Part shown: positions 5,608 through 25,236 of the stretch, in pieces
How the letters are laid out: the number at the start of each line of letters is the position of its first letter
How positions within the stretch are numbered: position 1 is the stretch's first letter
Assembly: GCA_043808895.1 (NCBI GenBank)
Contig: JAZDEK010000204.1
Span: 1 to 25,773, forward strand
From: Pseudomonadota bacterium
GTDB lineage: Bacteria; Bdellovibrionota; JAFGOL01
Direction of reading: 5' to 3'
DNA: 25,773 nucleotides
The notes under the pieces: model-generated
Databases searched by the model: none
Seen by the model: the letters and a program-made list of their open reading frames with translations, nothing else
What the model was told of the DNA's origin: nothing
Position numbers and translations under genes: made by a program

Positions 5608-5621
5608 AGCTACCCTCTAAA

Positions 5622-7772: not shown

Positions 7773-7777
7773 TATTA

Positions 7778-8782: not shown

Positions 8783-8969
8783 TCAATTCCTCTGCGTCTT
8801 TTTTTGATATCTTCTGTATCGCGAATCCCGCGTGAACAAGAACATAATCGCCAACAGCAATGTCTTTAAGAAGCATCCCCGACGCTTCGAACTTCACGCC
8901 ATTAGATTCAACGAGCATATTCTGCTCATCCATCTTTTGTATTATCTTTACCGGTACCGCTAAACACAT
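8766..8969 (-). CDS. hypC: Hydrogenase maturation chaperone HypC
   Basis: N-terminal MCLAVP and GDYVLVHAGFAI; 67 aa. Confidence 0.96.
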   Translation of the reverse strand: MCLAVPVKIIQKMDEQNMLVESNGVKFEASGMLLKDIAVGDYVLVHAGFAIQKISKKDAEELIELTK

Positions 8970-8980
8970 TACTTAACACC

Positions 8981-11170
8981 TCAAATAAGGGCTTGTCCAA
9001 AAGACACGCCAGCGTCGTTTATGGGGACGTTATTATTAAAGAATAATTTTGTATACCCGTTTTTATTAAGCTCTTGTTTCACTAGTTCAGAGAGGAGCTT
9101 GTTCTGGAAACAGCCTCCGGAAAGAGCGATTATCTCACCATTTGATCCCTTTACGGTCTGTGTGATGTAGCCTGCCACCCAAACATGGAATTTATACGCA
9201 ATTTCGCTGACCGAAACTTTGTTCTCCATATCCTTATTTAGCTCCCGGATCATTTGTTTAAAATCTATTACGTCACCCGCGGTAACCGTATATGGTGTTT
9301 TAACAACGCCTTTAAATTCTTCGGCGTACTTTTGTAAGAGTATTGCCGCCTGCGCCTCATACTCAACATTCTTTATTACTCCGCACAAAGCAGCGACTGC
9401 GTCAAATAGCCGCCCCAAAGATGATGTAAGCGGACAATTTATGCCGCTATCGATAAGTGAGCTTATTAGAGTAAAACGTTCTTTTGAGACATTTGTCGCG
9501 GTGTTAAGCCCGGACATTTTTAAAACGGAAACCGCCAATCTGTCTACCTCGTTAATTGCTTTCTCGCCGCCGGGTAAAGGAAAATATTGCAAGTGAGACA
9601 GTCTTTCGAATTTTTTATAGTCAGCACCTATTTTAAGGAACTCAAATCCCCATATGTTGCCGTCTGCTCCATATCCTGTTCCGTCGCAAATAACACAAAG
9701 CACATCTTTGCCAAGTAACCCATGTTCCCCCATTACACTTAATGCGTGGGAGTGGTGGTGTTGGATTTTGTTATATTTATCGTCGTAGTTTTTGTACCCA
9801 GGGTGCATATCTATATTAATATTTTTTGTTTTAATATTCAAAAGTTTTAAAAAATCGTTAATTTGCTCTTTTTGATAATCGTAGTTCCTTATGTCGTCCA
9901 TGTCACCTATGTGCTGGGACATATAAATTTTGTTGCCAATTCTAACAGAGAACGTATTCTTAAGTTCAGCTCCTAAAGAAATTGTACCGGCGTGGTCGGC
10001 TGCGTTGGGCGCGATCTCAAACACCGACGGCACAAAACCTCTTGCGCGTCGTATCATCTGAATGTCGCCATTAACTATCGCAGAAATTGAATCATCACAG
10101 CGATGTACTATATCTCTGTCATTTGTGAGCGCAACATCCACCATTTTATCTTTTATAAGTTCATTAACCTCAGCATCACTTATGGCTATGGGGTCGTCTA
10201 TTTTATTGGCGGACGTCATTATCAAGGCATCAACGTGGCTAAAAATAAATTTATGAAGCGGAGTATAAGGAAGCATAACGCCAAGATAGTTATTGTCGGG
10301 CGATATATTATTAAGAGCGTCATCTTTCTTTCTTAGTAGAACAATTGGAGCGGCCATGGATAAAAGAAGTTTTTGTTCGCTTTCTGAAACAACGCAGTAT
10401 TTCCTGACAACACCAATATCTTTCATCATCAGCGCAAAGGGTTTATTCCCTCTCTTCTTTGCCCGTCTTAATCTTGATACAGTTTCGTTATTAAAAGGGT
10501 CGCAAGCTATATTAAAACCGCCCAACCCTTTCACAGCGACCACCTTACCGCTCTTTAATAACTTAACGGTCTCGGTAATTGGATCACCATCAGCTCCAAG
10601 AAGTCCCAATTTTGGCCCGCACTTTGGGCATGCGTTTGGCTGTGCATGAAATCTTCTATTAGACGGGTCGTTATATTCTTTCTCACAGTCGGTGCACATT
10701 TTAAACCCAGACATGCTGGTATATCTTCTGTCATACGGACGATCTTGTATAATTGTAAACCTGGGGCCACAGTTCGTGCAATTTGTGAATGGATATAAAT
10801 ACCTTCTATTTGTCTTATCAAGAATATCCTTAACGCAATCGTCGCATACAGCTATATCTGGCGATATATCCGTTACCTTTTCACCCTCTGGCTCGCTTCT
10901 TAATATCAAAAATTCCGTTTCGTTTTTTACAGGGATCTCTTGGATATTAGATCCTGTTACTTTTGACATCCTTGGAGGATAAGTGAATAGTCTATTAATA
11001 AAATCATTCAGGACATTATCTTCTGCTTCAGCTTCTATAGTAACGCCCTGACTGGTATTAACAACATAACCTGTAACTCCATATTCATGGGCGTACTTAT
11101 ACGTTGTAGGACGAAAACCTACGCCCTGAACTATGCCGGTCACTTTAATTCTAACTCTTTTTAAGTTCAC
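8981..11170 (-). CDS. hypF: Carbamoyltransferase HypF
   Basis: Acylphosphatase domain (GIVQGVGFRP), four CxxC zinc-finger motifs, YrdC-like domain (AVKGLGGF), and Kae1-like domain (QHHHSH, DGTGYG, NDAGVSFGQ). GTG start. Confidence 0.96.
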   Translation of the reverse strand: MNLKRVRIKVTGIVQGVGFRPTTYKYAHEYGVTGYVVNTSQGVTIEAEAEDNVLNDFINRLFTYPPRMSKVTGSNIQEIPVKNETEFLILRSEPEGEKVTDISPDIAVCDDCVKDILDKTNRRYLYPFTNCTNCGPRFTIIQDRPYDRRYTSMSGFKMCTDCEKEYNDPSNRRFHAQPNACPKCGPKLGLLGADGDPITETVKLLKSGKVVAVKGLGGFNIACDPFNNETVSRLRRAKKRGNKPFALMMKDIGVVRKYCVVSESEQKLLLSMAAPIVLLRKKDDALNNISPDNNYLGVMLPYTPLHKFIFSHVDALIMTSANKIDDPIAISDAEVNELIKDKMVDVALTNDRDIVHRCDDSISAIVNGDIQMIRRARGFVPSVFEIAPNAADHAGTISLGAELKNTFSVRIGNKIYMSQHIGDMDDIRNYDYQKEQINDFLKLLNIKTKNINIDMHPGYKNYDDKYNKIQHHHSHALSVMGEHGLLGKDVLCVICDGTGYGADGNIWGFEFLKIGADYKKFERLSHLQYFPLPGGEKAINEVDRLAVSVLKMSGLNTATNVSKERFTLISSLIDSGINCPLTSSLGRLFDAVAALCGVIKNVEYEAQAAILLQKYAEEFKGVVKTPYTVTAGDVIDFKQMIRELNKDMENKVSVSEIAYKFHVWVAGYITQTVKGSNGEIIALSGGCFQNKLLSELVKQELNKNGYTKLFFNNNVPINDAGVSFGQALI

Positions 11171-11810
11171 TAATTTTCACATCCAGAAAAGCGTTCCACT
11201 CAGCAAGTGTTTTTTCATTATTAGCTGATAATTTAAAGACCACTGCGTTTGGAGCAGCCTCTTTTACTTCTTTCTCTATTACTTTAAGGTCAACTTTGCA
11301 CGCGTCAGCAAGATCCACTTTATTTATTATAACAACGTTCGCGGTCTTAAACATTGTCGCATATTTCTTTGGTTTATCTTCGCCCTCTGTTATTGAATAA
11401 ACAAGAACCCTTAAGTTCTCGCCAAGGTCAAAGCTCGACGGACAGACAAGATTTCCAACGTTCTCTATCACCACAAAGTCCAGCTTATCAATTGGGAGTT
11501 CATTCAGAGCACCGCTTATCATTCTTGCGTCAAGGTGGCATCCTCCCTCGGTGTTTATCTGTACTATAGGAATATCTAGGTCCTGCAGTTTTTCTGCATC
11601 CCTTGATGTATAAAGATCACCCTCTATGACTGCCGTCTTATATTTTCTAATAAACGACTTTAATGAATTCTGCAGCAGCGTTGTTTTCCCTGCACCCGGA
11701 GAACTCACAAAATTAACGGAATATATTTTACGTTCAGCGAGCATTCGTCTTATATCCGCTCCGACGGTGTTATTTTTTATCATTACGTTCTTTAGAACTT
11801 TAATTTCCAT
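11151..11810 (-). CDS. hypB: Nickel insertion GTPase HypB (short form)
   Basis: P-loop SSPGAGKTT, metal site GGCHL, ENVGNLVCP and NKVD. No His-rich or CxxCGC N-terminal extension. Confidence 0.96.
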   Translation of the reverse strand: MEIKVLKNVMIKNNTVGADIRRMLAERKIYSVNFVSSPGAGKTTLLQNSLKSFIRKYKTAVIEGDLYTSRDAEKLQDLDIPIVQINTEGGCHLDARMISGALNELPIDKLDFVVIENVGNLVCPSSFDLGENLRVLVYSITEGEDKPKKYATMFKTANVVIINKVDLADACKVDLKVIEKEVKEAAPNAVVFKLSANNEKTLAEWNAFLDVKISELKKS

Positions 11811-12039
11811 CGTCCACCTCTATAGAGAAAACAAAAAAGCCTTCCTCGTTTGAATCTTCATAAATGAGTTCCGCTTTTTCAAGAGCGCTCCCTTTTATAA
11901 GTCCCAGAAAATACATCTCAAAAGAATCCCGCATTACAGTATTAGGTTTACCGACGCCAAAAGTGATCTTAGTAACATGTTTTGGCGTAGCCTCTTTTAT
12001 AATATCGAAAGCGTATTGTGCTACTTTTGCCTCATGCAT
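11800..12039 (-). CDS. hypA: HypA nickel metallochaperone, minimal form lacking the zinc-finger domain
   Basis: Starts with the MHE Ni-binding motif, ends with an SIEVD strand, and lies directly upstream of hypB (11-nt overlap). It is 79 aa long with no cysteine. Confidence 0.85.
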   Translation of the reverse strand: MHEAKVAQYAFDIIKEATPKHVTKITFGVGKPNTVMRDSFEMYFLGLIKGSALEKAELIYEDSNEEGFFVFSIEVDDGN

Positions 12040-12667
12040 ATTCTTTAAAAGCTTTTATCCTGCTTCTTATAAACCATATTATCCCTATTAATATTAAGAC
12101 GCCTATCACTATGTCAGCCTCGTGTATTATGTGGCGCAGGGTGCTGTTCTTGTCGTCCCACATCTCGCCAGCTTTCATCCCGGCCCATGCGAGTAGAAGA
12201 CACCAAGGATAGCTCCCTAAGAACGTATATATATGGAATCTTGCTCTTGGCATTTTTGCGACACCTGCCGGAAATGCTATAAAAGTTCTTATAACGGGAA
12301 GCAGCCTTGCTATGAATACCGCCGCACTTCCGTATTTCTCGAACCACTTTTCCGCTGATGCGAGTTCTTTCTTAGACATTAAAATATATTTTCCATACCT
12401 ATATATAGCAGCACGTCCGCCGAGCGAGCCTATCCAATACGCGATCTCGGAACCTACGTTACATCCAATGGCACCAGCCAACGCGGCAAGCCATAAATTC
12501 ATTTTACCGGCGTAAACAAGATATCCCGCGAAAGGCATTATAATTTCGCTCGGAAGAGGAATGCACGCTGATTCAATTGCCATTAACGCGACAATGCCGA
12601 AGTATCCAAGGCTTCCAATAGTTCCGACAGTGAACACCTTAAGGAATTCTATTATTGTTTCGACCAT
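12032..12667 (-). CDS. dedA: DedA-family membrane protein (UptA/YngC-like)
   Basis: IESACIPLPSEIIMPFAGY, YWIGSLGGR...YGKY, WFEKYG..AVFIARLLPVIRTFIAFPAG are DedA signatures. Confidence 0.92.
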   Translation of the reverse strand: MVETIIEFLKVFTVGTIGSLGYFGIVALMAIESACIPLPSEIIMPFAGYLVYAGKMNLWLAALAGAIGCNVGSEIAYWIGSLGGRAAIYRYGKYILMSKKELASAEKWFEKYGSAAVFIARLLPVIRTFIAFPAGVAKMPRARFHIYTFLGSYPWCLLLAWAGMKAGEMWDDKNSTLRHIIHEADIVIGVLILIGIIWFIRSRIKAFKEYA

Positions 12668-13164
12668 TATTTACCACCCGTTGTCTCTATTATCGCAGAG
12701 ACTATTTTATTCACCGCATCATCCACGTTCTTTGTAAGTTCCTGGCCAAAACTTAATTTCTCGGGCTCTATTCCTATAACAAGAGTTTCAAATTCAATGG
12801 ACTGCGAAAGATAATCAAGCATTACAGAAAGAGGAAGCACGTGAGTTGAGAACGTAACACCTGCTATATCTTTTCTGGGGATCAATGTTATGGTCCCTGG
12901 TTTTTTTCCCGTCTCTGCGGCGTCTATAATAATTAAGTGCGTGGTCTCGAACCTTTTAATATCCGAGGTATAATTCTCTGGGGCTGTTCCGCTGGAGAGT
13001 ACCTGGATATTTTTGTTTTCATTTTTCTTGTTTTTGGCAGCTAATCTTCCGGCAGCGTAATGTCCGGCACCGTCGTCTGATTTTATCTCGGAGCCTACAC
13101 CAAGAACGGTTATTTTAGGATCTTTCGCGCCTGTCTTAAAAAATTTGAGCAGCTCATCTTTCAT
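12667..13164 (-). CDS. hycI: Hydrogenase maturation endopeptidase (HycI-like)
   Basis: GVGSEIKSDDGAG, IIIDAA and STHVLPL motifs; 165 aa; located next to a group 4 hydrogenase. Confidence 0.9.
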   Translation of the reverse strand: MKDELLKFFKTGAKDPKITVLGVGSEIKSDDGAGHYAAGRLAAKNKKNENKNIQVLSSGTAPENYTSDIKRFETTHLIIIDAAETGKKPGTITLIPRKDIAGVTFSTHVLPLSVMLDYLSQSIEFETLVIGIEPEKLSFGQELTKNVDDAVNKIVSAIIETTGGK

Positions 13165-13507
13165 TTATCTTAACTCTGAGCTTTTTTCTGTCCAGCGCGG
13201 CAAGCTCGAACTTTGGAGTAATATCCAGCGCTTTTTTGGGGCACGAATCAACGCACTGAGCGCAATATAAACACTTATCCAACTCAACTATGGCGTCAAA
13301 TGTGTCGCCGAACTTTTCTATTGTTATGGCGTTAGACGGACAGTCTTTCATGCAAAGTTTGCAGCCTATACATTTTTCGGCATAGAACAAAAGTTTGCCC
13401 CTGAATTTATCCGGCATGTTAACAGCCTCGTAAGGATACTTTATGGTCGCAGGCTTTCTTGTCAAAGAATCAATAACCAACCTAAGCATTTTTCCGGGCC
13501 TTATCAT
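13154..13507 (-). CDS. 2[4Fe-4S] subunit of the hydrogenase (NuoI/HycF/MbhN-like)
   Basis: ATIKYPY...FRG leader and two CxxCxxCxxxCP motifs. Confidence 0.92.
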   Translation of the reverse strand: MIRPGKMLRLVIDSLTRKPATIKYPYEAVNMPDKFRGKLLFYAEKCIGCKLCMKDCPSNAITIEKFGDTFDAIVELDKCLYCAQCVDSCPKKALDITPKFELAALDRKKLRVKINER

Positions 13508-14439
13508 GATAGCACTCCCTTAATAATGAGGATAAATAAAAGCTGCAAGAATGCCGCTGGAGCAAAATATTTCCAGCACGCGTTGACCATTTGATCTATT
13601 CTTAAACGCGCAAAGAGCGTTCTTCCAAGCGATATAAGAAATACAACGGCCGTTACTTTAATTATATAGAGCACAAACCCTGTTACGGGCTCCAAATACA
13701 GACCAAACGGCAAAAATACCGCGGCAATTAAAGACGCGCCAACGACCATTTCTATGTCTATTCCCATTCTAAAAAGCGCCAATAATCTTCCTGAATATTC
13801 TGTAAATGTACCGCCAACAATTTCTGTTTCGGCTTCTGCCATATCAAAAGGAACTTTTTCAAGTTTTCCAAGCAGAGCTATTATAGAGATACAAAACGCC
13901 GCGATATTGAAAAGCATAAGCTCCGGGCGCGCATCATAGAACACGGTCATTGAGCTCAGCGACCAGGTGTTTGCAAGAAGCGCTGGAGACAATACCGCCA
14001 AGAATAAAAGCACTTCATAAGAAAAGAGCTGCGTTAACGTACGCATCGCGCCGACCATTGAGTATAGCGATGTTGAAGACCAGCCGGCCAAAAAGAAAGA
14101 AACCGTTGGTATTGTTAAAAGATACAGCACAACGATAATGTCGCCTGCGAACGGGAATAAAGATGATGGATGCCACAGCGGTATATAAAAGAAAGAAGCG
14201 ACGGACGCTGTTACAGCCAATATCGGCATAAACTTAAATAGTTTCTTGTCGGCACACTCCGGGATTATCTCTTCTTTTGCTGTTAGCTTAATAAAATCAG
14301 CGAAAGGCTGAAAGAACGGAGGGCCTTTCCTGTTTTGGAACCTAGCGTAAAGAATTCTGTCAACGTATTCAAACACCAGCGCCATTACGCACAGGAACAT
14401 GAATCCCGGGAAAATTAAGATATTAAAAAGCGTCATCAT
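13504..14439 (-). CDS. Membrane subunit (NuoH/HycD/EchB-like)
   Basis: ARFQNRKGPP..QPFADFIKL.AKE, PFDMAEAETEIVGG...EYSG and ARLRIDQ. Confidence 0.94.
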   Translation of the reverse strand: MMTLFNILIFPGFMFLCVMALVFEYVDRILYARFQNRKGPPFFQPFADFIKLTAKEEIIPECADKKLFKFMPILAVTASVASFFYIPLWHPSSLFPFAGDIIVVLYLLTIPTVSFFLAGWSSTSLYSMVGAMRTLTQLFSYEVLLFLAVLSPALLANTWSLSSMTVFYDARPELMLFNIAAFCISIIALLGKLEKVPFDMAEAETEIVGGTFTEYSGRLLALFRMGIDIEMVVGASLIAAVFLPFGLYLEPVTGFVLYIIKVTAVVFLISLGRTLFARLRIDQMVNACWKYFAPAAFLQLLFILIIKGVLS

Positions 14440-14445
14440 GTAGGA

Positions 14446-15669
14446 TCACTCCCCCTTACGATATTTTTTATTGAGCTCGGTAAAATCTATTCCGCGCTCT
14501 TTTTTATACCATTCAATGCTCTGAGCCCTTAAAGTACGCCAATCAACCGTTTTTGTTTCGCCTGTAGCAAAATTATTTACTTTTATTGTCCTATCTGTGC
14601 ACGAGAAACAAGGATCAATGGCCGCTATGGCTATTGGAACGTCGGCCAAGTTATTGCCTTTTAACATAGTCGCCACTGACTGAAGGTTGGCAAGAGTAGG
14701 AGCTCTTAGTTTAACTCTCTCCGGCTTATCTGTTCCATTCGTTTTAACATAGTGAACATCTTCTCCTCTTGGAGCTTCGTACCTTGATGTCGCTTCGCCC
14801 GCCGGAACACGGCGCGGGAATTTAACAGCTATATCTCCGTCCGGGATATTCTTTACAAGCTGACGGAGAATTTTATAAGTCTCCATAAGTTCGAATATCC
14901 TAACGACCGCTCTTCCATAAACATCACAGTGATTATCTGTTATTACGTTAAAATCTACCTCGTCGTAGGCTGCGTATGGATCGTCCTTACGTGTGTCTCT
15001 GGACATGCCGGATGCTCTTCCGGTAGGCCCTACTGTACCAAGTCTTAAAACGTCCTCTTTAGATATGTAACCAACACCTGAAAGTCTTTTCACGAACGTA
15101 ATTTCTTCCGTAGATACTTTCGCAAAATATTTTGTTCTCTCTTCAAGTATGTCAACAGCCTTTGAAATATCCAGCAGTTGCTCTTTGCTAAGATCTCTTC
15201 TTACACCGCCGTAGGTATTCATGCCGTAGTTAACCCTGTTACCGCTTATAGCAGCAAGAAGGTCCATAACAACTTCTCTGTCTCTCCATGTGTACATAAG
15301 AAGAGTGTCGAACCCAACTTCGTGAGCAGCAACACCAAGCCACAATAAATGGCTGTGCACTCTTTCAAGTTCTCCAATAATGGAACGTATATATTTTGCC
15401 CTTTTTGGTATCTCAGTGTTAGCCGCGTCTTCAACAGCCTGAATAAATGCTGTTGAGTGAGAGTGTGAACAAATACCGCACACTCTTTCTATAAGATACA
15501 TGGATTCTATGAACGTTCTTGATTCAGCCGCTTTTTCTATGCCCCTGTGGTTATAACCAAGACGCATCCCAAAATCCGTTATCCTCTCGCCATCCAGAGA
15601 GATAAGAAAACTTTCAGGCTCTTTTAACGCCGGATGTTGAGGCCCTATTGGTATTTTTACTGTTCCCAT
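14446..15669 (-). CDS. Group 4 [NiFe]-hydrogenase large (catalytic) subunit
   Basis: L1 motif ERVCGICSHSH, L2 motif DPCFSCTDR, NuoD-like N-terminus GPQHPALKEP, and a 47-aa C-terminal extension after the L2 Arg. Confidence 0.95.
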   Translation of the reverse strand: MGTVKIPIGPQHPALKEPESFLISLDGERITDFGMRLGYNHRGIEKAAESRTFIESMYLIERVCGICSHSHSTAFIQAVEDAANTEIPKRAKYIRSIIGELERVHSHLLWLGVAAHEVGFDTLLMYTWRDREVVMDLLAAISGNRVNYGMNTYGGVRRDLSKEQLLDISKAVDILEERTKYFAKVSTEEITFVKRLSGVGYISKEDVLRLGTVGPTGRASGMSRDTRKDDPYAAYDEVDFNVITDNHCDVYGRAVVRIFELMETYKILRQLVKNIPDGDIAVKFPRRVPAGEATSRYEAPRGEDVHYVKTNGTDKPERVKLRAPTLANLQSVATMLKGNNLADVPIAIAAIDPCFSCTDRTIKVNNFATGETKTVDWRTLRAQSIEWYKKERGIDFTELNKKYRKGE

Positions 15670-15670
15670 T

Positions 15671-16147
15671 TTACTTTCCCCCTTTGTCGAGCATGTCAGC
15701 TGTCCAATCTTTTCTTAAAGGATACTGACCGTCCGGCCAACCGTCTGGCAGAGGATATCTGTGGCCTTCCGGAAGACCCTGAACTTTCATTCCGAACATA
15801 TCAATAAGTTCTCTTTCATATAGTATCGCTCCGGGAAATGCGTCGCCTATTGAGTTAAGCACCGGATTACTTTTAGGAACGCTTGTCTTTAGATCGAACA
15901 CAACACCTTCAAAATTGCAGAGATGATAAATAGCTGAAAGGTTCTCTCCCTCGTCCAAGCCCGTTATCATGCATATCGCTTTAAAGTCCAAATCCTTAAC
16001 AACATGATCAAAGACTTGCCTGAAATTATTATATTCAACCTCGGCAGATATGCGTCTTGCTCTTTTTATTTTCATTTTGTCTTTCATATGGCCGAATTTT
16101 CCGGCAACACTGTCCGTTATTTTTTGTTCTTTGTTGAATTCGCTCAT
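15671..16147 (-). CDS. NuoC-like subunit (EchD/MbhK-like)
   Basis: ITGLD...YH, YERELIDMFGMKVQG.P and YPLRKDW. Confidence 0.92.
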   Translation of the reverse strand: MSEFNKEQKITDSVAGKFGHMKDKMKIKRARRISAEVEYNNFRQVFDHVVKDLDFKAICMITGLDEGENLSAIYHLCNFEGVVFDLKTSVPKSNPVLNSIGDAFPGAILYERELIDMFGMKVQGLPEGHRYPLPDGWPDGQYPLRKDWTADMLDKGGK

Positions 16148-16605
16148 TTTGATTCCCTCCGTTTTTTGCGCTCCCCTTCCTCGTAACTTGTGAGAAGTTT
16201 CACAACGCCGTCTATAATGGCTTCAGGACGAACAGGACATCCGGGGATGTACGCTGCGACCGGAATTGTAGAATCAATGCCGCCTTTCACGTTATAACAA
16301 CCGTTAAACACTCCGCCGGAAGACGCACATGTTCCTACAGCGACCACGAATTTGGGGGATGGCATTTGCTCGTATATCCTGACCAATCTTTTTTCTATCT
16401 GTCTTGTCACAGGCCCTGAGCATAAAAGAACGTCCGCGTGTCTTGGTGTACCTTTTAACAGCACGCCAAATCTTTCAAGATCAAATAGCGGTGTAAGTGT
16501 GGCAACTATCTCTATATCGCAAGCGTTACAGGCACCAGTATTAAAGTGGATGACCCACGGGGATTTTGTTCTAGACCATGTTACTAATTTATCCACAATC
16601 TTCAC
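16144..16605 (-). CDS. Group 4 [NiFe]-hydrogenase small subunit (NuoB/EchC/MbhJ-like)
   Basis: SPW...GACNACDIE, PRHADVLL..GPVT, GTCASSGG and IPGCPVRP: four cluster-ligating Cys. GTG start. Confidence 0.95.
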   Translation of the reverse strand: MKIVDKLVTWSRTKSPWVIHFNTGACNACDIEIVATLTPLFDLERFGVLLKGTPRHADVLLCSGPVTRQIEKRLVRIYEQMPSPKFVVAVGTCASSGGVFNGCYNVKGGIDSTIPVAAYIPGCPVRPEAIIDGVVKLLTSYEEGERKKRRESK

Positions 16606-16612
16606 TTGATGT

Positions 16613-16942
16613 TTACCTCCTGAACAATATCAAAAGACCTATTATCGCGCACACAACGTACAGAGCCGGAACAAATACATCGCTCATGCTCGACGGATTT
16701 GGAGCCGTGGCTATTACAAGAGCGACCACGTGCATGATCGTGAAAAAGAAAGCGAACGGAAAGAACTGTCTGTAATCCGGCTGCACCCTGTGGTCAGAAA
16801 CGTCTTCGCCGCAGGCATAGGCTTTATTCTTTCCAGGCTCGTCTTTTCCCTGAAAGGCCAACTTCTTCATAAAGTAAGCTTGAATGGAAACAACGACCAA
16901 GATAATAAAGAATACAATTGGCGGTAAAAGAAGATAATTCAT
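16613..16942 (-). CDS. NuoA-like membrane subunit (3 TM)
   Basis: First TM helix, a loop containing KNKAYACGE (equivalent to NuoA YECG), then two further TM helices. Confidence 0.8.
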   Translation of the reverse strand: MNYLLLPPIVFFIILVVVSIQAYFMKKLAFQGKDEPGKNKAYACGEDVSDHRVQPDYRQFFPFAFFFTIMHVVALVIATAPNPSSMSDVFVPALYVVCAIIGLLILFRR

Positions 16943-16950
16943 GCTTTCAC

Positions 16951-17271
16951 CTATCCTTTAAGATTTCTTAACTTTGTGACGTTAAGAGATCCAATTTTTT
17001 TAAATATCCCGAACACAATACCCGCCGCGACAGCTATAACGACGACCTCTATAACAATGAGCGTGATCGCCATTGTTTGCGCGAGTGCTAGACGGTTGCT
17101 AACATATCCCGCGAGTATTATCAAAAGCGTCACCGCCTTTGTAAGAAGCTCAAGTCCTATAAGTGTTCGGATAAAATTCCTGGTCACTGTTATGCAGTAA
17201 ATACCGCACACGAACAAGAGCACTATAAAAATACTAAACGTCCAAAAAAGGTTTGCTGATTCATTCATCAT
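16951..17271 (-). CDS. NuoK/MnhC-like membrane subunit
   Basis: NFIRTLIGLELL and ITLIVIEVV retain both NuoK-type glutamates. The start is likely 17271 or 17268 (GAGAGGG SD), not 17304. Confidence 0.88.
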   Translation of the reverse strand: MMNESANLFWTFSIFIVLLFVCGIYCITVTRNFIRTLIGLELLTKAVTLLIILAGYVSNRLALAQTMAITLIVIEVVVIAVAAGIVFGIFKKIGSLNVTKLRNLKG

Positions 17272-17764
17272 CTTTTGCCCTCTCTTTGAATAACACCACG
17301 ACACCGAAAACTCCGGCGAGCAGTATTATCATCTGACCTATTATATCTGTCGTCCTCATGCCCCATAGAACGTTCTTAACGTCGCCCTGGGGATAAAGAT
17401 TAAGTGTGTTGTTAAGTTCCGGATAAACCATATAAAATCCGAGGAAAACAAAAAGCCCGACGATGATAACAGGAAGATACCAGTATCTTTTTATCCTGTG
17501 CTTTGTCTGTTGTTTGAGTTCCGGCCTTGTTATCGGCTTTGTAAGGCTTATCGTGCTTACAAAAACTACGGTAATAAGTCCCGCGCATACAGAAAGCTCA
17601 AACACCGCAGCTAACGGAGAATCCAAGTTGAACATAAGAAGTGTGAGCACAATGCTTACGGCCGCAAGACCTATTGCCGACATCAAAAGGCTTCTCGTCA
17701 TAACAGCCCATACCGCGCAAAGCAGCATAATCGTAAGGAGAATTAAATTTAGATCTAAAGTCAC
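17261..17764 (-). CDS. NuoJ-like (DUF4040/MnhB-related) membrane subunit
   Basis: 167 aa, 5 hydrophobic segments, SPLAAVFELSVCAGLITV, C-terminal LWGMRTTDIIGQ; sits immediately before the NuoK-like gene. GTG start. Confidence 0.82.
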   Translation of the reverse strand: MTLDLNLILLTIMLLCAVWAVMTRSLLMSAIGLAAVSIVLTLLMFNLDSPLAAVFELSVCAGLITVVFVSTISLTKPITRPELKQQTKHRIKRYWYLPVIIVGLFVFLGFYMVYPELNNTLNLYPQGDVKNVLWGMRTTDIIGQMIILLAGVFGVVVLFKERAKDDE

Positions 17765-19164
17765 TTCAGCACCCCCGCTACCGGAATTATTATTGTATCA
17801 ACAAAGAACGGAAAGAATACTCCAACGCCTATTGTTATTATCGCGAGTATAACGGCAGGAAGAACCAGGCTCATCCCAGCCTCTTTTATTGAAAGCACTT
17901 TGAGTTTGCCAAAGAACACTCTTCTTTGAAGAGATAAAAAGTACGCGAGCGTTATTAAGCTTCCAAGTATCGCGGCAGCGGCGTAGCCGTATTGGCCGAC
18001 CTTCCACAGCGCTATTATTATAATAAGTTTGCTCCAGAACCCTGAAAGCGGAGGAATTCCAGCTGCTGATAAAAAAGCCACAACAGATGTCCAGCCCGTG
18101 AACGGCATCACTTTTGATAAGCCTCCCATGGAGTCCATGTCGCGCGTGCCCGTCTGTTTTTCCACAGCAGCCGCGTTAACAAAGAGCTGGGCCTTGAATA
18201 TTGAGTGATTAAAAAGATGGAACACAGCACCTGCTATTCCAAGTTCTGTTCCTGTACCAAGTGCCAAAATTATATAACCAACTTGGCTGATACTTGAGTA
18301 CGCGAGCATCCTTTTCATATCTTTTTGCGTTAAAGCGGCAAACGCGCCGATAAATATCGATATAATTCCGACGAGAAGAAGAATGCTTTTTATCGTCTCA
18401 TTAAATCCGAAAACTTCTGTCACCAAACGGATCATCGTGTAGATACCGGTCGTTTTTGTGACTATACCGGCCAAGAACACCGACGTACTCGCGGGAGCCG
18501 CGGTATACGCGTCGGGCAGCCAGCCGTGGAAAGGGACAAGCCCTCCTTTTATAAAAAGTCCGGCCATAAAAAGTATAACGGCTGTTAGCACAAAGAAATT
18601 ATTTGATCCCTGAACACCATCCCTGACGCTCAAGAACGTTGTGTCTCCAGAGTACATCATAAGAAGAGAGATGGATGTCAGCATCATTATCGTAGCAATA
18701 GCGGACAGCACTAAATATTTAAAAGAGCCCTCGAACGCCAGCTCGTCTTCCTGAATTGCTATCAATATAAAGGATGCAACCGCTGTTATTTCTAAAAATA
18801 CGTACATCGAAAATATGTCTCTTACCATAACAACGCCGTTCATTCCGACCACAGCAAGAAGTATCAGGTTAACAAAGTTAAAAGACTTTTTAGGGTCTTT
18901 AATTGTACCTGCCGCGACCAAGAGGGAGCAAAACGCGACAATGCCTACGGAAAGAATAAGAACAAGGCTCAATCTATCTAGCTCCAAATTAAAAGCCGTT
19001 GTGGAAAGCACAATGTTCAGCTTGTTATTAAAGATAACAAGAAAGCTTTGCAGGAACGTTGCGAACAATCCCAGCCAAAGCGCAACGCTTCGCATCGCTT
19101 TTTTAAAGCCGACGTTCAGTATAATTACAGAGACGAGCGGAATAAGAATTAATAAGAGTGCCAC
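17761..19164 (-). CDS. Antiporter-like subunit 3 (NuoN/MrpD-like)
   Basis: YVFLEI, KGGLVPFHGWLPDAY, KRMLAYSSISQVGY and GIPPLSGFWSK; 467 aa. Confidence 0.92.
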   Translation of the reverse strand: MALLLILIPLVSVIILNVGFKKAMRSVALWLGLFATFLQSFLVIFNNKLNIVLSTTAFNLELDRLSLVLILSVGIVAFCSLLVAAGTIKDPKKSFNFVNLILLAVVGMNGVVMVRDIFSMYVFLEITAVASFILIAIQEDELAFEGSFKYLVLSAIATIMMLTSISLLMMYSGDTTFLSVRDGVQGSNNFFVLTAVILFMAGLFIKGGLVPFHGWLPDAYTAAPASTSVFLAGIVTKTTGIYTMIRLVTEVFGFNETIKSILLLVGIISIFIGAFAALTQKDMKRMLAYSSISQVGYIILALGTGTELGIAGAVFHLFNHSIFKAQLFVNAAAVEKQTGTRDMDSMGGLSKVMPFTGWTSVVAFLSAAGIPPLSGFWSKLIIIIALWKVGQYGYAAAAILGSLITLAYFLSLQRRVFFGKLKVLSIKEAGMSLVLPAVILAIITIGVGVFFPFFVDTIIIPVAGVLK

Positions 19165-19178
19165 TTTAAAATATCCCC

Positions 19179-21014
19179 CTATTTAACCGTTTTTATTATC
19201 CAGACAGCTAGAAGTATCATCCCAGCCAGAGACCACAATATGTACATGGAAAAATTCCCTGTATGAGCTTTCTTAATACTGTTCGAGAATACGTTCGCCG
19301 TTTTAACGCTGAATACGTTATAGACCCAGTCGGTCGCTCTATCTACTCCGAACGCGGCGTAAGAGAACGCGTTAATGAATTTCAATCCTATATCGTAAGG
19401 GTCGAACACTTTTCTTTCGGCCTTATCATATATACCGTGAAGCACCGGCGCGTAATGTATGTGATCCACAGCACCTATGCCTTTACCAGTCTTTTTAACG
19501 CCGTACCTATGGTTAAGGTACGCGGCAGTAAGAACAACTATCGTTACAATGACAAGTGTAACGTTCGCATGAGTTTCGCCAAGGATATTCCCGTCGAGAG
19601 CCATATTCGAAAGCACAGGTTGAATTAAATGATAAATTGGATATGAGTTATAAACGCCAAAGAATATACAGAACGCGGCTATTACTATCATCGGAAGATA
19701 CATCGTCCATGGAACTTCCTTGATGTTGTTGTACTGCTCATCCCTTTTTCCTAAGAAAGCGGCATGACCAAGCTTTAAGAACGACGCGGCTGTTAAAAAC
19801 GACCCCAGCGCTGCAGCGCCGTAGAATATCCATCCTCTTTCAAGAGCGCCATCGTATATAAGTTCCTTTGAAAAGAATCCGTTGAACGGAGGAACTCCGG
19901 ATATGGAAAATGCTGCAACCAAAAAGCACGCAAAAGTTATCGGCATCTTTAAACCAATGCCGCCAAGTTTATTTAAGTCAGTGGTACCTGTTTGTCTTTC
20001 TACGGCACCGCCGGCAAGGAATAATCCGTCTTTATACAGAGCATTATTTATCATGTGGAAAAGTCCACCGATTATACCTACAGGAACGCATGTCCCAATG
20101 CCAAGTATCATGTATCCGACCTGACTGATGGCGTGATATGAGAGAAGTTTCTTAAAGTCGTGTTGAACAAGTGCCATCATAACAGCGGCGAGTATTGTTA
20201 CAGCGCCGATAGTCATCATTGTGTAACTTAGCCACGAGCCGTGGTCAAGTTTGAATAAGTCCAAAGATATTCTGGCAAGGAAATAGATTCCAACTATTTT
20301 TTCTATCGATCCGGGAATGAACGCCATGAACGGGAGCGGAGCATCCTTTGCGGCGTCGGGTATCCAGCTATGGAAAGGCATAGCACCCGCTTTTCCAATA
20401 GCTCCTATCATAAGAAGAAGGAACGCGACGCTGCCCAACCCTTGGGCAGGAATATTAATTCCGGACATTGTGAAAGTGCCGGCGATAAATCCTGTAAGAG
20501 CGATACCGGCCATAAAACAAATATCAGCAACGCCGTTAATTACGAATGCCTTAACCGCTGTTTTAAATGATTCCTTTCCGCCTATAGCTATGAAACCAAA
20601 TAGAGTTAGGAGCAGTCCTTCCCAGAAGAAAAGCATCATGATGAGGTTATTAGAAAGAAGAACTCCGTTCACTTGAGCGATAGTTAAAAGAAAATACGCG
20701 TAGAACTGTGACACATTATCTTTTCCTTTCATGAACGACGCTGAATAAAGCGCTATTAAAAGCGCGAACGCAGCCGCTGAAAGGATCATAAAGCTCGCGA
20801 AAGGATAAACTCTCAGCGAGAACTCAAGCCCCCATCCGCCGCCCCAAGGAAAAGAAAATAGCATTTCCTTTCTAAAAAGAGGGAATACTAAAATTAAATT
20901 TGTCGCCGCAACAAGTATCGCGAAGACCTCCCTATAGTACGCTCTTCTTGGAAGAAGAAAAACAAGTGCGGCAGCCACCGCCGGAATAATTAAAGTCCAA
21001 AGCATTATATTCAT
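19179..21014 (-). CDS. Antiporter-like subunit 2 with a NuoL/MrpA-type C-terminal lateral helix
   Basis: FFWEG, KAGAMPFHSWIPDA, KKLLSYHAISQVGY and GFFSKE. 611 aa, with an amphipathic extension ending HTGNFSMY and a final TM helix. Confidence 0.92.
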   Translation of the reverse strand: MNIMLWTLIIPAVAAALVFLLPRRAYYREVFAILVAATNLILVFPLFRKEMLFSFPWGGGWGLEFSLRVYPFASFMILSAAAFALLIALYSASFMKGKDNVSQFYAYFLLTIAQVNGVLLSNNLIMMLFFWEGLLLTLFGFIAIGGKESFKTAVKAFVINGVADICFMAGIALTGFIAGTFTMSGINIPAQGLGSVAFLLLMIGAIGKAGAMPFHSWIPDAAKDAPLPFMAFIPGSIEKIVGIYFLARISLDLFKLDHGSWLSYTMMTIGAVTILAAVMMALVQHDFKKLLSYHAISQVGYMILGIGTCVPVGIIGGLFHMINNALYKDGLFLAGGAVERQTGTTDLNKLGGIGLKMPITFACFLVAAFSISGVPPFNGFFSKELIYDGALERGWIFYGAAALGSFLTAASFLKLGHAAFLGKRDEQYNNIKEVPWTMYLPMIVIAAFCIFFGVYNSYPIYHLIQPVLSNMALDGNILGETHANVTLVIVTIVVLTAAYLNHRYGVKKTGKGIGAVDHIHYAPVLHGIYDKAERKVFDPYDIGLKFINAFSYAAFGVDRATDWVYNVFSVKTANVFSNSIKKAHTGNFSMYILWSLAGMILLAVWIIKTVK

Positions 21015-22444
21015 TTTACGACTCCCATAAGTTGTTGAACTGTCGTGTAAACATAGTCGGCCGGATAATTAATGAAAATTCCGCCGGCCAAAGAAAGCAC
21101 CGCAAGCAGCGCAACGCTGAATAACATAACGAACGAGCCCTCTTTTACAGGATGTTCAACTTTTGTCTGTCCCATAAATATAAGGATAAATATCCTGAAT
21201 AAATAAATTATCGTCATTACAGCGCCGAATAGGAACATTAGCGCTATCCAAACATGCCCACTCTGCAGAGTGCCATTAATAACAAGGAACTTTGAGAAGA
21301 AGCCTCCAAGCGGAGGAATTCCCATTACAGAGAACGCGCATATAAGGAATGCCATCGCTGTAACAGGCATTGTCTTTATAAGGCCGCCCATCTTTGTAAT
21401 GTCTTTTGTATGCGCGGACTGTTCAATTATACCGGCGCAAAGAAATAGTCCGGCTTTTGCCATGCCGTGCATCAATATATATAGTAAGCCACCCGCAAGA
21501 GCGACTTCGTTCCCGATAGAAAGCCCAAGGAATATAAAACCGATCTGGCTAATAGTTGAATACGCTATTATTCTCTTCATATCTTTGTCTATCATGGCGG
21601 CACCGGCTGAAACCAGGGCGCTTGCTCCCGCAATAACAGGGACAACTGTGTGCCATACGGCATCCAGGGTCATTGTCGCGACAAAAAGTCTCGCGTAAAC
21701 ATAGACACCGATCTTAACAAGAACAGCGGCGTGGAGAAGAGCAGTAACAGGAGACGGCGCAACACCGGCGTCCGGAAGCCATGTATGAAGTGGCAACGTC
21801 GCGGATTTTGAAAGTATACCGAACAGTATTAGCGCCATTGCGATATTGGGTACTGTTGAGTGTCCAATAACACCAAGGTCAAATGATCCTGTTGCTTCAT
21901 ATACATATAAGAAGCCGATAAGCATCATCAGGGCACCGAACACTGTAACAAGGAAAGCCTTGTCCGCTTTGAGCACGTGTTCTTTTTCCCTAAAGAATCC
22001 TATTAATCTCCAGCACGCTATTGCCGTGATCTCCCAGAATAAATAGAGACAGATCAAATTCCTGGAGAAGATTATTCCCATCATTGAGCCAAGGAACAGA
22101 ACCACCATAAAGTAGTATTCGTTCCTTTCTTCGTAGTGGCTTATGTAACCAAACGAGTAAAGCACGATGATAGATCCAACCAACGACGATACTATCGCCA
22201 TAAATACGGCAAGCCCGTCCGCGTAGAAATAATTCATAGCTAAAGTTTGACTGTAAAGGGCTGTGACTGTTTCGCCTCTAAGTACCATCGGTACTAAAGC
22301 AAAAGAGCACACTAATGAGGTCATTACCATTAGCAGTGCGCAGACGTTTCTTAACCCCTCTGATAGCCTTCCAAGCACGGGAAGTAGAAAAGACCCGAGT
22401 ACGGGTACTAACACTGTAAGCAGAATTAAAGATTCGTTCTTCAT
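21011..22444 (-). CDS. Antiporter-like subunit 1 (NuoL/EchA-like core, no lateral helix)
   Basis: LFWEI, KSATLPLHTWLPDAGVAPSPVTALLHAAVLVKIGVY, KRIIAYSTISQIGF and GIPPLGGFFSK; 477 aa. Confidence 0.92.
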   Translation of the reverse strand: MKNESLILLTVLVPVLGSFLLPVLGRLSEGLRNVCALLMVMTSLVCSFALVPMVLRGETVTALYSQTLAMNYFYADGLAVFMAIVSSLVGSIIVLYSFGYISHYEERNEYYFMVVLFLGSMMGIIFSRNLICLYLFWEITAIACWRLIGFFREKEHVLKADKAFLVTVFGALMMLIGFLYVYEATGSFDLGVIGHSTVPNIAMALILFGILSKSATLPLHTWLPDAGVAPSPVTALLHAAVLVKIGVYVYARLFVATMTLDAVWHTVVPVIAGASALVSAGAAMIDKDMKRIIAYSTISQIGFIFLGLSIGNEVALAGGLLYILMHGMAKAGLFLCAGIIEQSAHTKDITKMGGLIKTMPVTAMAFLICAFSVMGIPPLGGFFSKFLVINGTLQSGHVWIALMFLFGAVMTIIYLFRIFILIFMGQTKVEHPVKEGSFVMLFSVALLAVLSLAGGIFINYPADYVYTTVQQLMGVVK

Positions 22445-22584: not shown

Positions 22585-23367
22585 TTATTTTAGATTATTC
22601 GCGTATAAAAAAGGCTCATCCTTCATAAGAGCGTCATACTGCGCGTCAAAAATAACGGTTTTATTTTCGGAAAGCACCACCGCGCGTTTAAACACTCCTT
22701 TCACATATTCAAAATCGTGCGTGGCACAAATTATAGTTTTTCCTTCGCGATTTAAATTCACAAGGAGTTCACTTATAAATCTTTTTGTTTTCGGGTCTAT
22801 CCCGTTCATCGGCTCATCAAGCACAAGGACTTTTGGCTCCATGACAAGAACGCTCGCCAGCGCCACTTTCTTTTTCTCACCCTCGCTTAAAAAATAAGGA
22901 ACCCTTTGGGAGAGTTTTTGTATACCGAGGAGTTCAAGATATTTTTTCACTTTGAGTCTTGTTTGTTCTTCATTCATACCCATTTGCATCGGAGCGAACG
23001 CGACTTCTTCATATACGCTGGAGCAAAAAAGTTGCGTTTCGGGGTTTTGGAACACGAATCCTATCGTGGAGTGAAAAGTTCTTGCCGCGTTAATATTGCT
23101 CAAATATTTCTCCGTTATGTGCTGGCCGTTAAAAAAGTAGCCCCTGCGTGAGTCGGTATTTTTATCGTTCGCGTCGGCATTATTGCCTTTCGTGTCAGCG
23201 GCGAAAACCAACCCGTTAATAAGTTTAAGGAGCGTGGATTTGCCACTCCCGTTCGGGCCTATTATCGCGACAGAGTCGCCTTCAGAAATACTGAGCGTGA
23301 TGTTGTTAAGCGCGGGGATATCGTCGTAGTTGAAGCTTATGTTCTTTATTGTGATAATCTCTTTCAA
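22585..23367 (-). CDS. nikO: ECF Ni/Co transporter ATPase (NikO/CbiO)
   Basis: Walker A GPNGSGKST, VFQNPE, LSEGEKKK, Walker B VLDEP and an H-loop. TTG start overlaps the nikQ stop. The Ni assignment comes from context. Confidence 0.88.
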   Translation of the reverse strand: MKEIITIKNISFNYDDIPALNNITLSISEGDSVAIIGPNGSGKSTLLKLINGLVFAADTKGNNADANDKNTDSRRGYFFNGQHITEKYLSNINAARTFHSTIGFVFQNPETQLFCSSVYEEVAFAPMQMGMNEEQTRLKVKKYLELLGIQKLSQRVPYFLSEGEKKKVALASVLVMEPKVLVLDEPMNGIDPKTKRFISELLVNLNREGKTIICATHDFEYVKGVFKRAVVLSENKTVIFDAQYDALMKDEPFLYANNLK

Positions 23368-24119
23368 ATCAACGCTCCTGAAAATAACATCAGCAGGATA
23401 AGGGCGATATACATATAATCGGACAGCCCTAATTTCAACAAGGACGTTCTTTTATATTCGCCGTTAAATCCTCGGCATACCATGGCGTCATACATACTTT
23501 CAGACATGTTCTTTGATTTAATGAATAGAACCCCGAACAGACCAAACATACTTTCGCGCGCTGTTTTGAATTCTCCGACGGTCTTTTTTTTGAGCGCCAA
23601 TAGCATATTGACCGCGGTATCGCCGACTATGACAATGTGTTTTACTGTAATTCCGACAATAAATATAATTACGTCGGGAACAAATAAAACCTTAAGGGAC
23701 TGCGTAATTTGGACCGGGTTGGTTGAATAAACAAAGACGTTGACGCAAAGAACACTGACAGCAATTTTAAGCACGATAAAAAAGGAAGCTGTTGTTTTGA
23801 ATAAAAAAACAGACGGCAACATAATAATAAACGCAAATAGAACAGAAGCACCGGCAACGGTTAATATTTTTTTTAATTCCCGACGCGGAAAAATAGCCGC
23901 TGCGACCGTAACAATAATGCCAATAAACAGAACGTACGACAGTTTTCCGGATAGACTTACGGACAGTACCAACACCAGCACAGACAAAAACTTTACGATA
24001 GGATTTACTGACGACAGAAAGGACGGTGATGTTTTCTCGCGTCTTAAATTGGAAAATACCCCAAAAAAAGAAAGAACGTTTTTCTCTATAAAATTACCTT
24101 TAATAATTCGTACGCGCAT
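23364..24119 (-). CDS. nikQ: ECF Ni/Co transporter T component (NikQ/CbiQ)
   Basis: Hydrophobic; VNPIVK at the N-terminus and MYDAMVCRGF (ECF-T motif); lies between the S component and the ATPase. Confidence 0.86.
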   Translation of the reverse strand: MRVRIIKGNFIEKNVLSFFGVFSNLRREKTSPSFLSSVNPIVKFLSVLVLVLSVSLSGKLSYVLFIGIIVTVAAAIFPRRELKKILTVAGASVLFAFIIMLPSVFLFKTTASFFIVLKIAVSVLCVNVFVYSTNPVQITQSLKVLFVPDVIIFIVGITVKHIVIVGDTAVNMLLALKKKTVGEFKTARESMFGLFGVLFIKSKNMSESMYDAMVCRGFNGEYKRTSLLKLGLSDYMYIALILLMLFSGALI

Positions 24120-25059: not shown

Positions 25060-25236
25060 TTAATCGCCGGCGGCAATTGCTTCAACCGGGCACACTCCCA
25101 CGCAATTTCCGCAATCAATACATTTGGCGCCGTCTATAATGAAAATACTTCCATCCTGATTTATGGCAGACACCGGGCATTCCGGTTGGCAAGCACCACA
25201 GCCTACACACTTTTTCTTATCTATTCCGTGAGACAT
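25060..25236 (-). CDS. fdx: Clostridial-type 2[4Fe-4S] ferredoxin, 58 aa (absent from the ORF track)
   Basis: Hand translation gives MSHGIDKKKCVGCGACQPECPVSAINQDGSIFIIDGAKCIDCGNCVGVCPVEAIAAGD, with two CxxCxxCxxxCP motifs and a strong SD (AGGGAGG). Confidence 0.96.
   Translation of the reverse strand: MSHGIDKKKCVGCGACQPECPVSAINQDGSIFIIDGAKCIDCGNCVGVCPVEAIAAGD

Follow-up and report, generated by a model that had tools for sequence, protein, structure and literature searches.

A Bdellovibrionota operon for a membrane-bound [NiFe] hydrogenase with counterparts of the eleven core subunits of complex I

The contig JAZDEK010000204.1 of a Pseudomonadota bacterium (GTDB Bdellovibrionota; JAFGOL01; assembly GCA_043808895.1) carries a row of genes matching the core subunits of complex I, among them one for a NuoD-like protein with the four cysteines of a Ni-Fe site. 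Its 25,773 nt, analysed as a whole and hereafter called the window, raise the questions of whether a hydrogenase or a quinone reductase is encoded, how the enzyme relates to known group 4 hydrogenases and to complex I, and what it may do for its host. A preliminary description of this DNA proposed a [NiFe] hydrogenase made by 11 consecutive genes, counterparts of all 11 core complex I subunits. The coordinates of the open reading frames (ORFs), Pfam and NCBIfam models, and a profile of the NuoA-like subunit bear out this inventory, and the window contains an intact operon for a membrane-bound [NiFe] hydrogenase with eleven complex I core counterparts.

An Operon with the Subunit Inventory of Complex I

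The eleven ORFs run from 22444 to 13154 on the minus strand, as first described, with three antiporter-like genes followed by J-K-A-B-C-D-H-I and then by the gene of a HycI-type protein. The encoded subunits are as follows:

21011..22444, minus strand: antiporter-like subunit 1, 477 aa, MrpA/NuoL-type core without C-terminal extension (Pfam PF00361, Proton_antipo_M, 242 bits, and PF00662)
19179..21014, minus strand: antiporter-like subunit 2, 611 aa, NuoL-format (Pfam Proton_antipo_M, 180 bits)
17761..19164, minus strand: antiporter-like subunit 3, 467 aa, MbhH/MrpD type (Pfam Proton_antipo_M, 240 bits)
17261..17764, minus strand: NuoJ-format subunit, 167 aa, with an MbhD-like N-terminal half (Pfam Oxidored_q3, 36 bits, above the cut-off)
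16951..17304, minus strand: NuoK/MrpC-like subunit, longest ORF 117 aa (Pfam Oxidored_q2, 63 bits)
16613..16942, minus strand: NuoA/ND3-like subunit, 109 aa, three predicted helices (Pfam Oxidored_q4, 21.3 bits for a cut-off of 23.3)
16144..16605, minus strand: NuoB-like small subunit, 153 aa, one [4Fe-4S] site (Pfam Oxidored_q6, 110 bits)
15671..16147, minus strand: NuoC-like subunit, 158 aa, encoded by its own gene and not fused to the large subunit (Pfam Complex1_30kDa, 78 bits)
14446..15669, minus strand: [NiFe] large subunit, NuoD-like (P0001), 407 aa (Pfam Complex1_49kDa, 237 bits, and NiFeSe_Hases, 66 bits)
13504..14439, minus strand: NuoH/MbhM-like membrane subunit, 311 aa (Pfam NADHdh, 253 bits)
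13154..13507, minus strand: NuoI-like 2x[4Fe-4S] subunit, 117 aa (Pfam Fer4 families)

These genes belong to a single dense minus-strand block that extends from 25236 to 6780, in which neighbours mostly overlap or lie no more than 14 bases apart. The block comprises, in order, a ferredoxin gene, the genes of a CbiM/N-CbiQ-CbiO transporter, a gap of 140 bp, the eleven structural genes, hycI, a DedA/VTT gene, and hypA, hypB, hypF, hypC, hypD and hypE. Promoter and terminator scans gave site counts not above those of shuffled sequence, so that the boundaries of the operon rest on gene spacing only. No gene for NuoE/F/G, formate dehydrogenase or CO dehydrogenase was found by Pfam within the window, in agreement with the earlier statement that the cluster has no NADH, formate or CO input module.

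Catalytic Subunits and Maturation

The large subunit carries both Ni-Fe motifs, namely, RVCGICSHSH (L1, with C64 and C67) and DPCFSCTDR (L2, with C354 and C357), and continues for 48 residues beyond the latter. In 81 sequences of the family, L1 and L2 are invariant or nearly so, and a tail of 35–51 residues is present in all. The NuoB-like subunit conserves C26, C29, C93 and C123 (73 sequences), thus four Cys for one [4Fe-4S] cluster, and the NuoI-like subunit conserves eight Cys (71 sequences). The operon hence combines the features of group 4 [NiFe] hydrogenases: L1/L2 motifs, a four-Cys NuoB-like and a 2x[4Fe-4S] NuoI-like subunit, a NuoH-like subunit together with three PF00361 proteins, and a maturation system (HycI and HypA, B, F, C, D and E) next to a large subunit with a tail. 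In the PDB, the best matches of the large subunit are MbhL (333 bits), HycE (277) and Nqo4 (209), and those of the NuoH-like subunit are MbhM (143 bits), Nqo8 (132) and HycD (105). The closest solved relative of both is the membrane-bound hydrogenase (MBH) of Pyrococcus furiosus, a ferredoxin-dependent, H2-evolving ion pump.

The genes for maturation and metal supply flank the structural genes on both sides:

24100-25035, minus strand: CbiM/N-like protein, nickel/cobalt uptake of the energy-coupling factor type (Pfam CbiM, 196 bits)
23364-24119, minus strand: CbiQ (Pfam CbiQ, 64 bits)
22585-23367, minus strand: CbiO ATPase (Pfam ABC_tran, 95 bits)
12667..13164, minus strand: HycI-type maturation endopeptidase (Pfam HycI, 80 bits)
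12032-12667, minus strand: DedA/VTT membrane protein (Pfam)
11800-12039, minus strand: short HypA (Pfam)
11151-11810, minus strand: HypB (Pfam)
8981-11170, minus strand: HypF (Pfam)
8766-8969, minus strand: HypC
7778-8782, minus strand: HypD (Pfam)
6780-7835, minus strand: HypE (Pfam)

In most related loci, as here, hycI adjoins the 3' end of the NuoI-like gene. The transporter probably imports nickel, a metal suggested by the genomic setting; no CbiM/N or CbiQ homologue was found in 80 related loci, and CbiO had only weak ABC-ATPase matches (23–32% identity) in 4 of these 80. HypA has 79 residues and aligns to positions 1–67 of the 112-position Pfam model, so that its zinc-finger part seems to be missing; its orthologues from related loci have 84 residues. 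The DedA/VTT gene lies between hycI and hypA, its ends touching or overlapping both, and orthologues (77–78% identity) at this place are confined to the closest metagenome-assembled genomes (MAGs; L006 and L007).

Could the complex be something other than a hydrogenase, that is, an 11-subunit complex I or an oxidoreductase of the Ehr (energy-converting hydrogenase-related) type that reduces quinone or another acceptor? Its composition equals that of 11-subunit complex I, several subunits have Nuo models as their top NCBIfam matches (though none reaches its cut-off), and the Ni ligands are gone in sister lineages that share the gene order. Nevertheless, the Ni-Fe motifs kept in 81 sequences, the cleavable tail, HycI, the six hyp genes and the Ni/Co transporter all speak for a hydrogenase, as the preliminary description had concluded from the sequence, and no oxidase was found in the host genome (1.34 Mb, 78% complete). 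We therefore regard a quinone-reducing or similar function as extremely unlikely.

Membrane Arm

With regard to the three antiporter-like proteins, subunit 1 matches MrpA (201 bits), NdhF (196) and NuoL (192) best in the PDB. Its residues E138, K213, H238, K244, H326, K330 and K385 are conserved in 100% of 54 sequences; K244 is the MrpA-type lysine of transmembrane helix 8 (TM8), and the other six align with E144, K229, H254, H338, K342 and K399 of E. coli NuoL. Subunit 2 aligns with the NCBIfam NuoL model from end to end (residues 2–608 against 3–611 of 615) and holds E132, K208, K239, K383 and K414 invariant. Its AlphaFold2 (AF2) model (pLDDT 80.6) contains helices at 513–583 and 588–610, and the top Foldseek matches are full-length NuoL/NdhF/ND5 proteins, with TM-scores of 0.75–0.79 in both directions. 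It is thus predicted to fold like full-length NuoL, with TM15, a lateral helix of about 70 residues and TM16. Subunit 3 is closest to MbhH (217 bits), MrpD (198) and MbsH (173), and E125, K206, K237, H316, H320 and K379 are conserved in 100% of 63 sequences. All three proteins keep the Glu of TM5, the Lys of TM7, the Lys/His of TM8 and the Lys of TM12, and with them the defining residues of a functional complex I or Mrp channel.

The smaller membrane subunits complete the inventory. PDB sequence matches of the J-like protein are MbsD and MbhD for residues 5–76, with full-length NuoJ matching weakly. In the AF2 model, the first 76 residues fit MbhD (TM-score on the target 0.85); the five helices of the model and its full-length structural matches to NuoJ/ND6/NdhG (TM-scores of about 0.5–0.57) argue that this 167-residue protein has the NuoJ format, its place being taken in MBH by two small proteins. 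Its E56 is invariant. The NuoK-like subunit matches MbsG, MbhG, NdhE and NuoK; its membrane glutamates E52 and E86 are conserved in 98–100% of 52 orthologues, and its true start is probably an ATG 11–12 codons into the longest ORF. With a profile of 30 NuoA-like orthologues, only ND3/NuoA chains were retrieved from the PDB (8 of 8, full length, best E 0.004), and the invariant Y42-x-C44-G45-E46 loop aligns with the 'YECG' loop of ND3. Counterparts of A, B, C, D, H, I, J and K are therefore all found together with three antiporter-like proteins, one bearing a long lateral helix. By sequence, the nearest kin of the subunits in the PDB are MBH, MBS and Mrp chains and not Nuo chains, so that a complex I composition goes together with MBH as the closest solved relative.

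This kinship bears on the ions moved, since at least one antiporter-like module might, as in an MBH/Mrp-like arm, exchange Na+ for H+, in which case the net output would be a sodium gradient and not four pumped protons. The antiporter-like subunits are nearest to MrpA, MrpD and MbhH, and subunit 1 has the MrpA-type TM8 lysine. Furthermore, the c subunit of the host's ATP synthase (L099, contig C100, 1176–1517, minus strand) reads ...GAIGQG... and ...ALIESLVIY..., and its Q...ES...Y pattern is compatible with Na+ binding, although the usual Thr after Ser is missing. Such a mechanism is also assumed in MAG papers (PMC8542988). However, the operon encodes no MrpE/F/G-type subunits (MbhA-C), which contribute to the Na+ path proposed for MBH and Mrp, and searches of the 78%-complete genome for MrpE/G (PF03334, PF01899) found none. 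On balance, Na+/H+ exchange seems rather unlikely.

Comparison with Known Hydrogenases and Complex I

Among the established types, the group 4e Ech hydrogenases, with six subunits and a single antiporter-like one, are ruled out by the eleven subunits, three of them antiporter-like. The group 4a formate hydrogenlyases (Hyc/Hyf) do not fit either, as the NuoC-like and NuoD-like proteins are unfused and the window has no formate dehydrogenase. The group 4d Mrp-linked MBH type was rejected for want of the Mrp genes named above. HydDB group 4g, a loosely clustered, uncharacterised and putatively ferredoxin-coupled class (PMC5037454), is the likely class of the large subunit: proteins with about 70% identity occur in MAGs of Omnitrophota and Endomicrobiaceae, taxa whose enzymes have been classed as 4g (PMC8542988, PMC11257099), and the earlier proposal of a 4g-type enzyme thus appears sound. 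Group 4g is polyphyletic (PMC13582414, PMC7886697). Hydrogenases from MAGs of Omnitrophota, Cloacimonadota, Auribacterota, Endomicrobium and Elusimicrobia have been named 'group 4g Mbh' or 'Mbh-Mrp type'; we do not adopt an 'Mrp-linked' label for this operon, in which no MrpE/F/G-type genes were found.

The preliminary description set the enzyme against Ech and Pyrococcus MBH; its complex I inventory stands, but the comparison omitted E. coli Hyf (PMC3144371) and Hfo (PMC7886697). The latter, an Fpo-like 11-subunit [NiFe] hydrogenase of Bathyarchaeia, Pyrodictium and Ca. Methanomethylicus, belongs to HydDB 4g (lineage 4g-6) and was presented by Loh, Herve and Brune in 2021 as the first [NiFe] hydrogenase with the 11 subunits of Fpo/Nuo and a closer link to complex I than MBH (PMC7886697). 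The enzyme described here resembles Hfo in its eleven subunits matching NuoA-D and H-N, its intact L1/L2 motifs and the absence of a Mrp E/F/G sodium module; both have no NADH or F420 input module, are presumed to have ferredoxin as partner, and are biochemically uncharacterised. As far as the published description allows comparison, Hfo differs in being archaeal and in its gene order, A-B-C-D-H-I-J-K-L-M-N, in contrast to ant-ant-ant-J-K-A-B-C-D-H-I (ant, antiporter-like) plus hycI.

The P. furiosus MBH (group 4d, PDB 6CFW) is the closest solved relative of five subunits, namely, the large, NuoH-like and K-like subunits, antiporter-like subunit 3 and the N-terminus of the J-like subunit, and is likewise ferredoxin-dependent with the same Fe-S chain. 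It has, however, one antiporter-like subunit, split MbhD/MbhE, MbhI instead of a NuoA-type subunit, and additionally MbhA-C/F (Mrp E, F, G and B), whereas the enzyme here combines three antiporter-like subunits with a fused NuoJ-format and a NuoA-like subunit and has no MbhA-C. E. coli hydrogenase 4 (Hyf, or formate hydrogenlyase 2; group 4a) shares the three antiporter-like subunits, but its large subunit is a NuoC-D fusion, it works with formate dehydrogenase and it reportedly has no NuoA and NuoJ homologues. HycE scores below MbhL against the large subunit described here. In 2011, Moparthi and Hagerhall noted both the three antiporter-like subunits of Hyf and an apparent absence of NuoA and NuoJ from hydrogenases, and they postulated an 11-subunit Ni-Fe enzyme as common ancestor (PMC3144371).

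With 11-subunit complex I (NDH-1, Fpo-like, or Nuo without EFG), the enzyme shares a one-to-one inventory, the NuoL-type lateral helix, the ND3-type YxCG loop and two NuoK-type glutamates, while NuoD of complex I lacks the four Ni-Fe cysteines and binds quinone. Among energy-converting hydrogenases, Ech2 of Thermoanaerobacter kivui has been characterised biochemically. It is ferredoxin-coupled and its gene cluster organisation matches the group 4g clusters of PMC13582414, but it has an Ech-type cluster with far fewer membrane subunits and, since 4g is polyphyletic, the shared label is no sign of close kinship. Some sister lineages resemble the Ehr complexes, which have no Ni ligands, whereas the enzyme here keeps the four cysteines and the maturation genes. 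No explicit account of this bacterial family as one with NuoA-, NuoJ- and NuoL-format subunits was found in the searchable literature.

Phylogeny and Sister Lineages

A phmmer search with the large subunit against 1.84 billion representatives gave 9486 matches. In a tree of 76 sequences (LG+C20+F+G4; MAG-named tips at 50% identity; bootstrap not fully settled), the window family falls within a clade of 17 tips (support 99/96), which also contains P0123 (60% identity) and several Ni-ligand-free lineages. Sister to it (95/90) is an archaeal lineage whose cluster includes a protein annotated Methanoregula sp. A separate clade (100/100), entirely without Ni-Fe cysteines, contains the nuoA-B-C-D-H-I-J cluster of the L067 contig and is taken as the complex I type. 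This separation, together with the four Ni-Fe cysteines of the NuoD-like subunit, led us to reject respiratory complex I as the identity of the enzyme. The window clade, the complex I-type clade and about a dozen further lineages of group 4 all branch from one polytomy. The idea that the operon is a model for the transition from hydrogenase to complex I consequently rests on composition only, as the tree resolves no sister relation to the NuoD of complex I.

The gene neighbourhoods of several relatives were compared with the operon. In the archaeal, Methanoregula-type locus L096 (2954–13015; 58% large-subunit identity), the order is split J, K, a 1094-aa double antiporter, a 490-aa antiporter and A-B-C-D-H-I-HycI; the 1094-aa protein seems to fuse two antiporter-like modules, and a second B-C-D-I set lies just upstream. 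On the MAG contig L067 (2618–15245), the 11-gene hydrogenase cluster is followed directly by the nuoA-B-C-D-H-I-J-type cluster, whose NuoD has no Ni ligands, so that the hydrogenase stands beside an 11-subunit complex I. The sister lineages P0150, P0174/P0291 and P0208 have no Ni cysteines, and P0291 is found with the same 11-gene layout. In this last locus (L097, 3014–15423; cluster proteins annotated Firmicutes/Bacillota), the order of the eleven genes is unchanged, yet the large subunit has ERYGGLGPQAH and YDFCFGAASR, so that both CxxC motifs are gone and the Ni site is lost; hypFCDE lie upstream, and genes for a ferredoxin and for POR alpha, beta and gamma directly downstream. The genome of the window itself has a second, divergent pair on a 2.1-kb contig (L003, contig C132), made up of a NuoB-like protein of 175 aa (497–1024) and a NuoD-like protein of 350 aa (P0122, 1024–2076). 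Being without Ni-Fe cysteine motifs, P0122 looks like an Ehr-type remnant or complex.

It is conceivable, albeit doubtful, that the operon family is the bacterial counterpart of the 11-subunit Ni-Fe ancestor of complex I postulated by Moparthi and Hagerhall, and that its Ni-ligand-free sisters record a repeated step from hydrogenase to non-hydrogenase, independent of complex I.

Distribution and Inheritance

A pattern scan of species-representative genome contigs returned at least 598 matches, at least 544 of which encode a relative, and the best 80 of these were fetched for comparison. Among these 80, nearly every sufficiently long locus has the 12-gene order ant-ant-ant-J-K-A-B-C-D-H-I-HycI, the large subunits share 65–82% identity, and the MAG labels cover at least 10 phyla. 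Such conservation of gene order indicates that the arrangement is no chance grouping. Record titles name Omnitrophota, Planctomycetota (Sedimentisphaerales, Phycisphaerae), Verrucomicrobiota, Kiritimatiellia, Krumholzibacteriota, Riflebacteria, Margulisiibacteriota, Treponemataceae and Bdellovibrionota, and the closest copies among the matches listed (80–82%) come from MAGs labelled Bdellovibrionales.

Within the family of the host, whose genomes measure 1.3–1.7 Mb, an orthologue of 78–82% identity is present in 7 of 8, whereas the other families of the phylum that were searched yielded homologues at 26–35% only, many with long reading frames. The family-limited presence and the 70% identity to enzymes of other phyla suggest that the family acquired the operon by horizontal transfer. 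The hydrogenase family as a whole is abundant in anoxic sediments, groundwater and lakes.

Beyond the 3' end of hypE (3668–6731, minus strand) lie genes for a DUF4136/PDZ protein, a homologue of outer-membrane phospholipase A1 and a protein with nine WG-containing beta repeats; as far as can be told, these have no relation to the hydrogenase.

Proposed Function and Energetics

The enzyme is, very probably, a ferredoxin:H+ oxidoreductase that evolves H2 and moves ions, a reading in which we infer the donor, direction, pumping and order of the arm. The link to ferredoxin starts from the first gene of the block:

25060..25236, minus strand: 2x[4Fe-4S] ferredoxin, 58 aa, clostridial-type, candidate electron donor (Pfam Fer4, two clusters)

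An orthologue, 83% identical, is encoded in a related locus (L008, 2782–2955) about 250 bp upstream of the first antiporter gene, and ferredoxin and POR genes adjoin the Ni-free sister cluster L097; these linked genes and the ferredoxin dependence of P. furiosus MBH favour the partner that the preliminary description had considered likely. Another conceivable donor would be a module that is encoded elsewhere and docks on the NuoI-like subunit, be it formate dehydrogenase, CO dehydrogenase or one that binds NADH. Other group 4 enzymes use formate or CO, and a choice of several transient partners has been argued for as a possibility in 11-subunit enzymes by Moparthi and Hagerhall (PMC3144371). 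Given that no such gene occurs in the window or in the 12-gene unit conserved across phyla, and that ferredoxin genes are linked in three loci, this is very unlikely.

The host looks like a small-genome fermenting anaerobe. Its genome encodes three POR_N (2-oxoacid:ferredoxin oxidoreductase) genes, F-type ATP synthase genes and one [FeFe]-hydrogenase; in the 78% recovered, neither antiporter-like genes beyond the three of the operon, nor RnfD/NqrB, cytochrome bd or haem-copper oxidase were found. In such a cell, ferredoxin would be reduced by the 2-oxoacid:ferredoxin oxidoreductases, and the 58-aa protein, as the likely ferredoxin, would feed both clusters of the NuoI-like subunit. Electrons would then reach the NuoD-like subunit by way of the single NuoB-like cluster and reduce protons to H2 at the Ni-Fe site there. 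In the manner of MBH and complex I, this reaction, at its interface with the NuoH/A/J/K-like subunits, may drive ions through a membrane arm in which the 611-aa subunit, with its long lateral helix, holds the three antiporter-like subunits together, and the resulting gradient could power the F-type ATP synthase. Most likely, the enzyme serves to re-oxidise ferredoxin, releasing H2 and exporting ions in a coupled process.

How many ions could be exported was estimated by our own calculation from standard potentials. For ferredoxin at -450 to -500 mV and H+/H2 at -414 mV (1 bar), the yield is about 7–17 kJ per H2, rising to about 30–39 kJ with H+/H2 at about -296 mV (10 Pa H2), and the translocation of one ion against 150–180 mV costs about 15–17 kJ. 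One to two ions per H2 are thus feasible, and not the four of complex I, so that a complex I-like stoichiometry of four ions per two electrons is implausible for H2 evolution. The higher ion stoichiometry suggested earlier hence becomes unlikely in this direction, owing to the small free energy between ferredoxin and H+, and would rather fit reverse operation or Na+/H+ exchange.

In reverse operation, H2 would be oxidised and ion influx would push electrons uphill onto ferredoxin for biosynthesis, with the three modules acting as a high ion-per-electron gear. The energy objection to four outward ions per H2 would vanish, H2 evolution could be left to the separate [FeFe]-hydrogenase, and the same direction was proposed by Loh et al. 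for the 11-subunit Hfo (PMC7886697). Yet the host looks fermentative, with three 2-oxoacid oxidoreductases making reduced ferredoxin; no CO2-fixation or strongly ferredoxin-consuming pathway was seen, although no search was aimed at such pathways; and the L097 cluster of a sister lineage adjoins POR, a ferredoxin producer. Taken together, we find this direction quite unlikely.

Several points weigh against an H2-evolving, ion-exporting ferredoxin oxidoreductase. Ferredoxin is proposed as donor from neighbouring genes only, and the whole 11-subunit clade is biochemically uncharacterised, its function being read from genes. The absences of Rnf and oxidases rest on a 78%-complete genome. Finally, the energy of this reaction would not allow all four complex I-like ion paths to pump outward.

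Significance for the Family and Its Hosts

Rather than a new kind of system, the operon is a typical member of a widespread, already catalogued family, of an enzyme type frequent among uncultured anaerobes and with an archaeal precedent in the literature. In this family, the chemistry of a hydrogenase is joined to the complete membrane architecture of complex I, and its structure and ion-per-electron ratio would bear on the origin of complex I and on what sets the number of antiporter modules. Were it indeed the counterpart of the postulated 11-subunit ancestor, three intact ion modules and a complete lateral helix of the NuoL type would be mounted on a reaction too weak for four outward ions, and the family would be the best system in which to study what the extra antiporter modules are for, be it a variable gear, Na+/H+ exchange or reverse operation. 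For the host, with a genome of about 1.3–1.7 Mb, the enzyme appears to be the only redox-driven ion pump found and probably sets how the cell makes its membrane potential.

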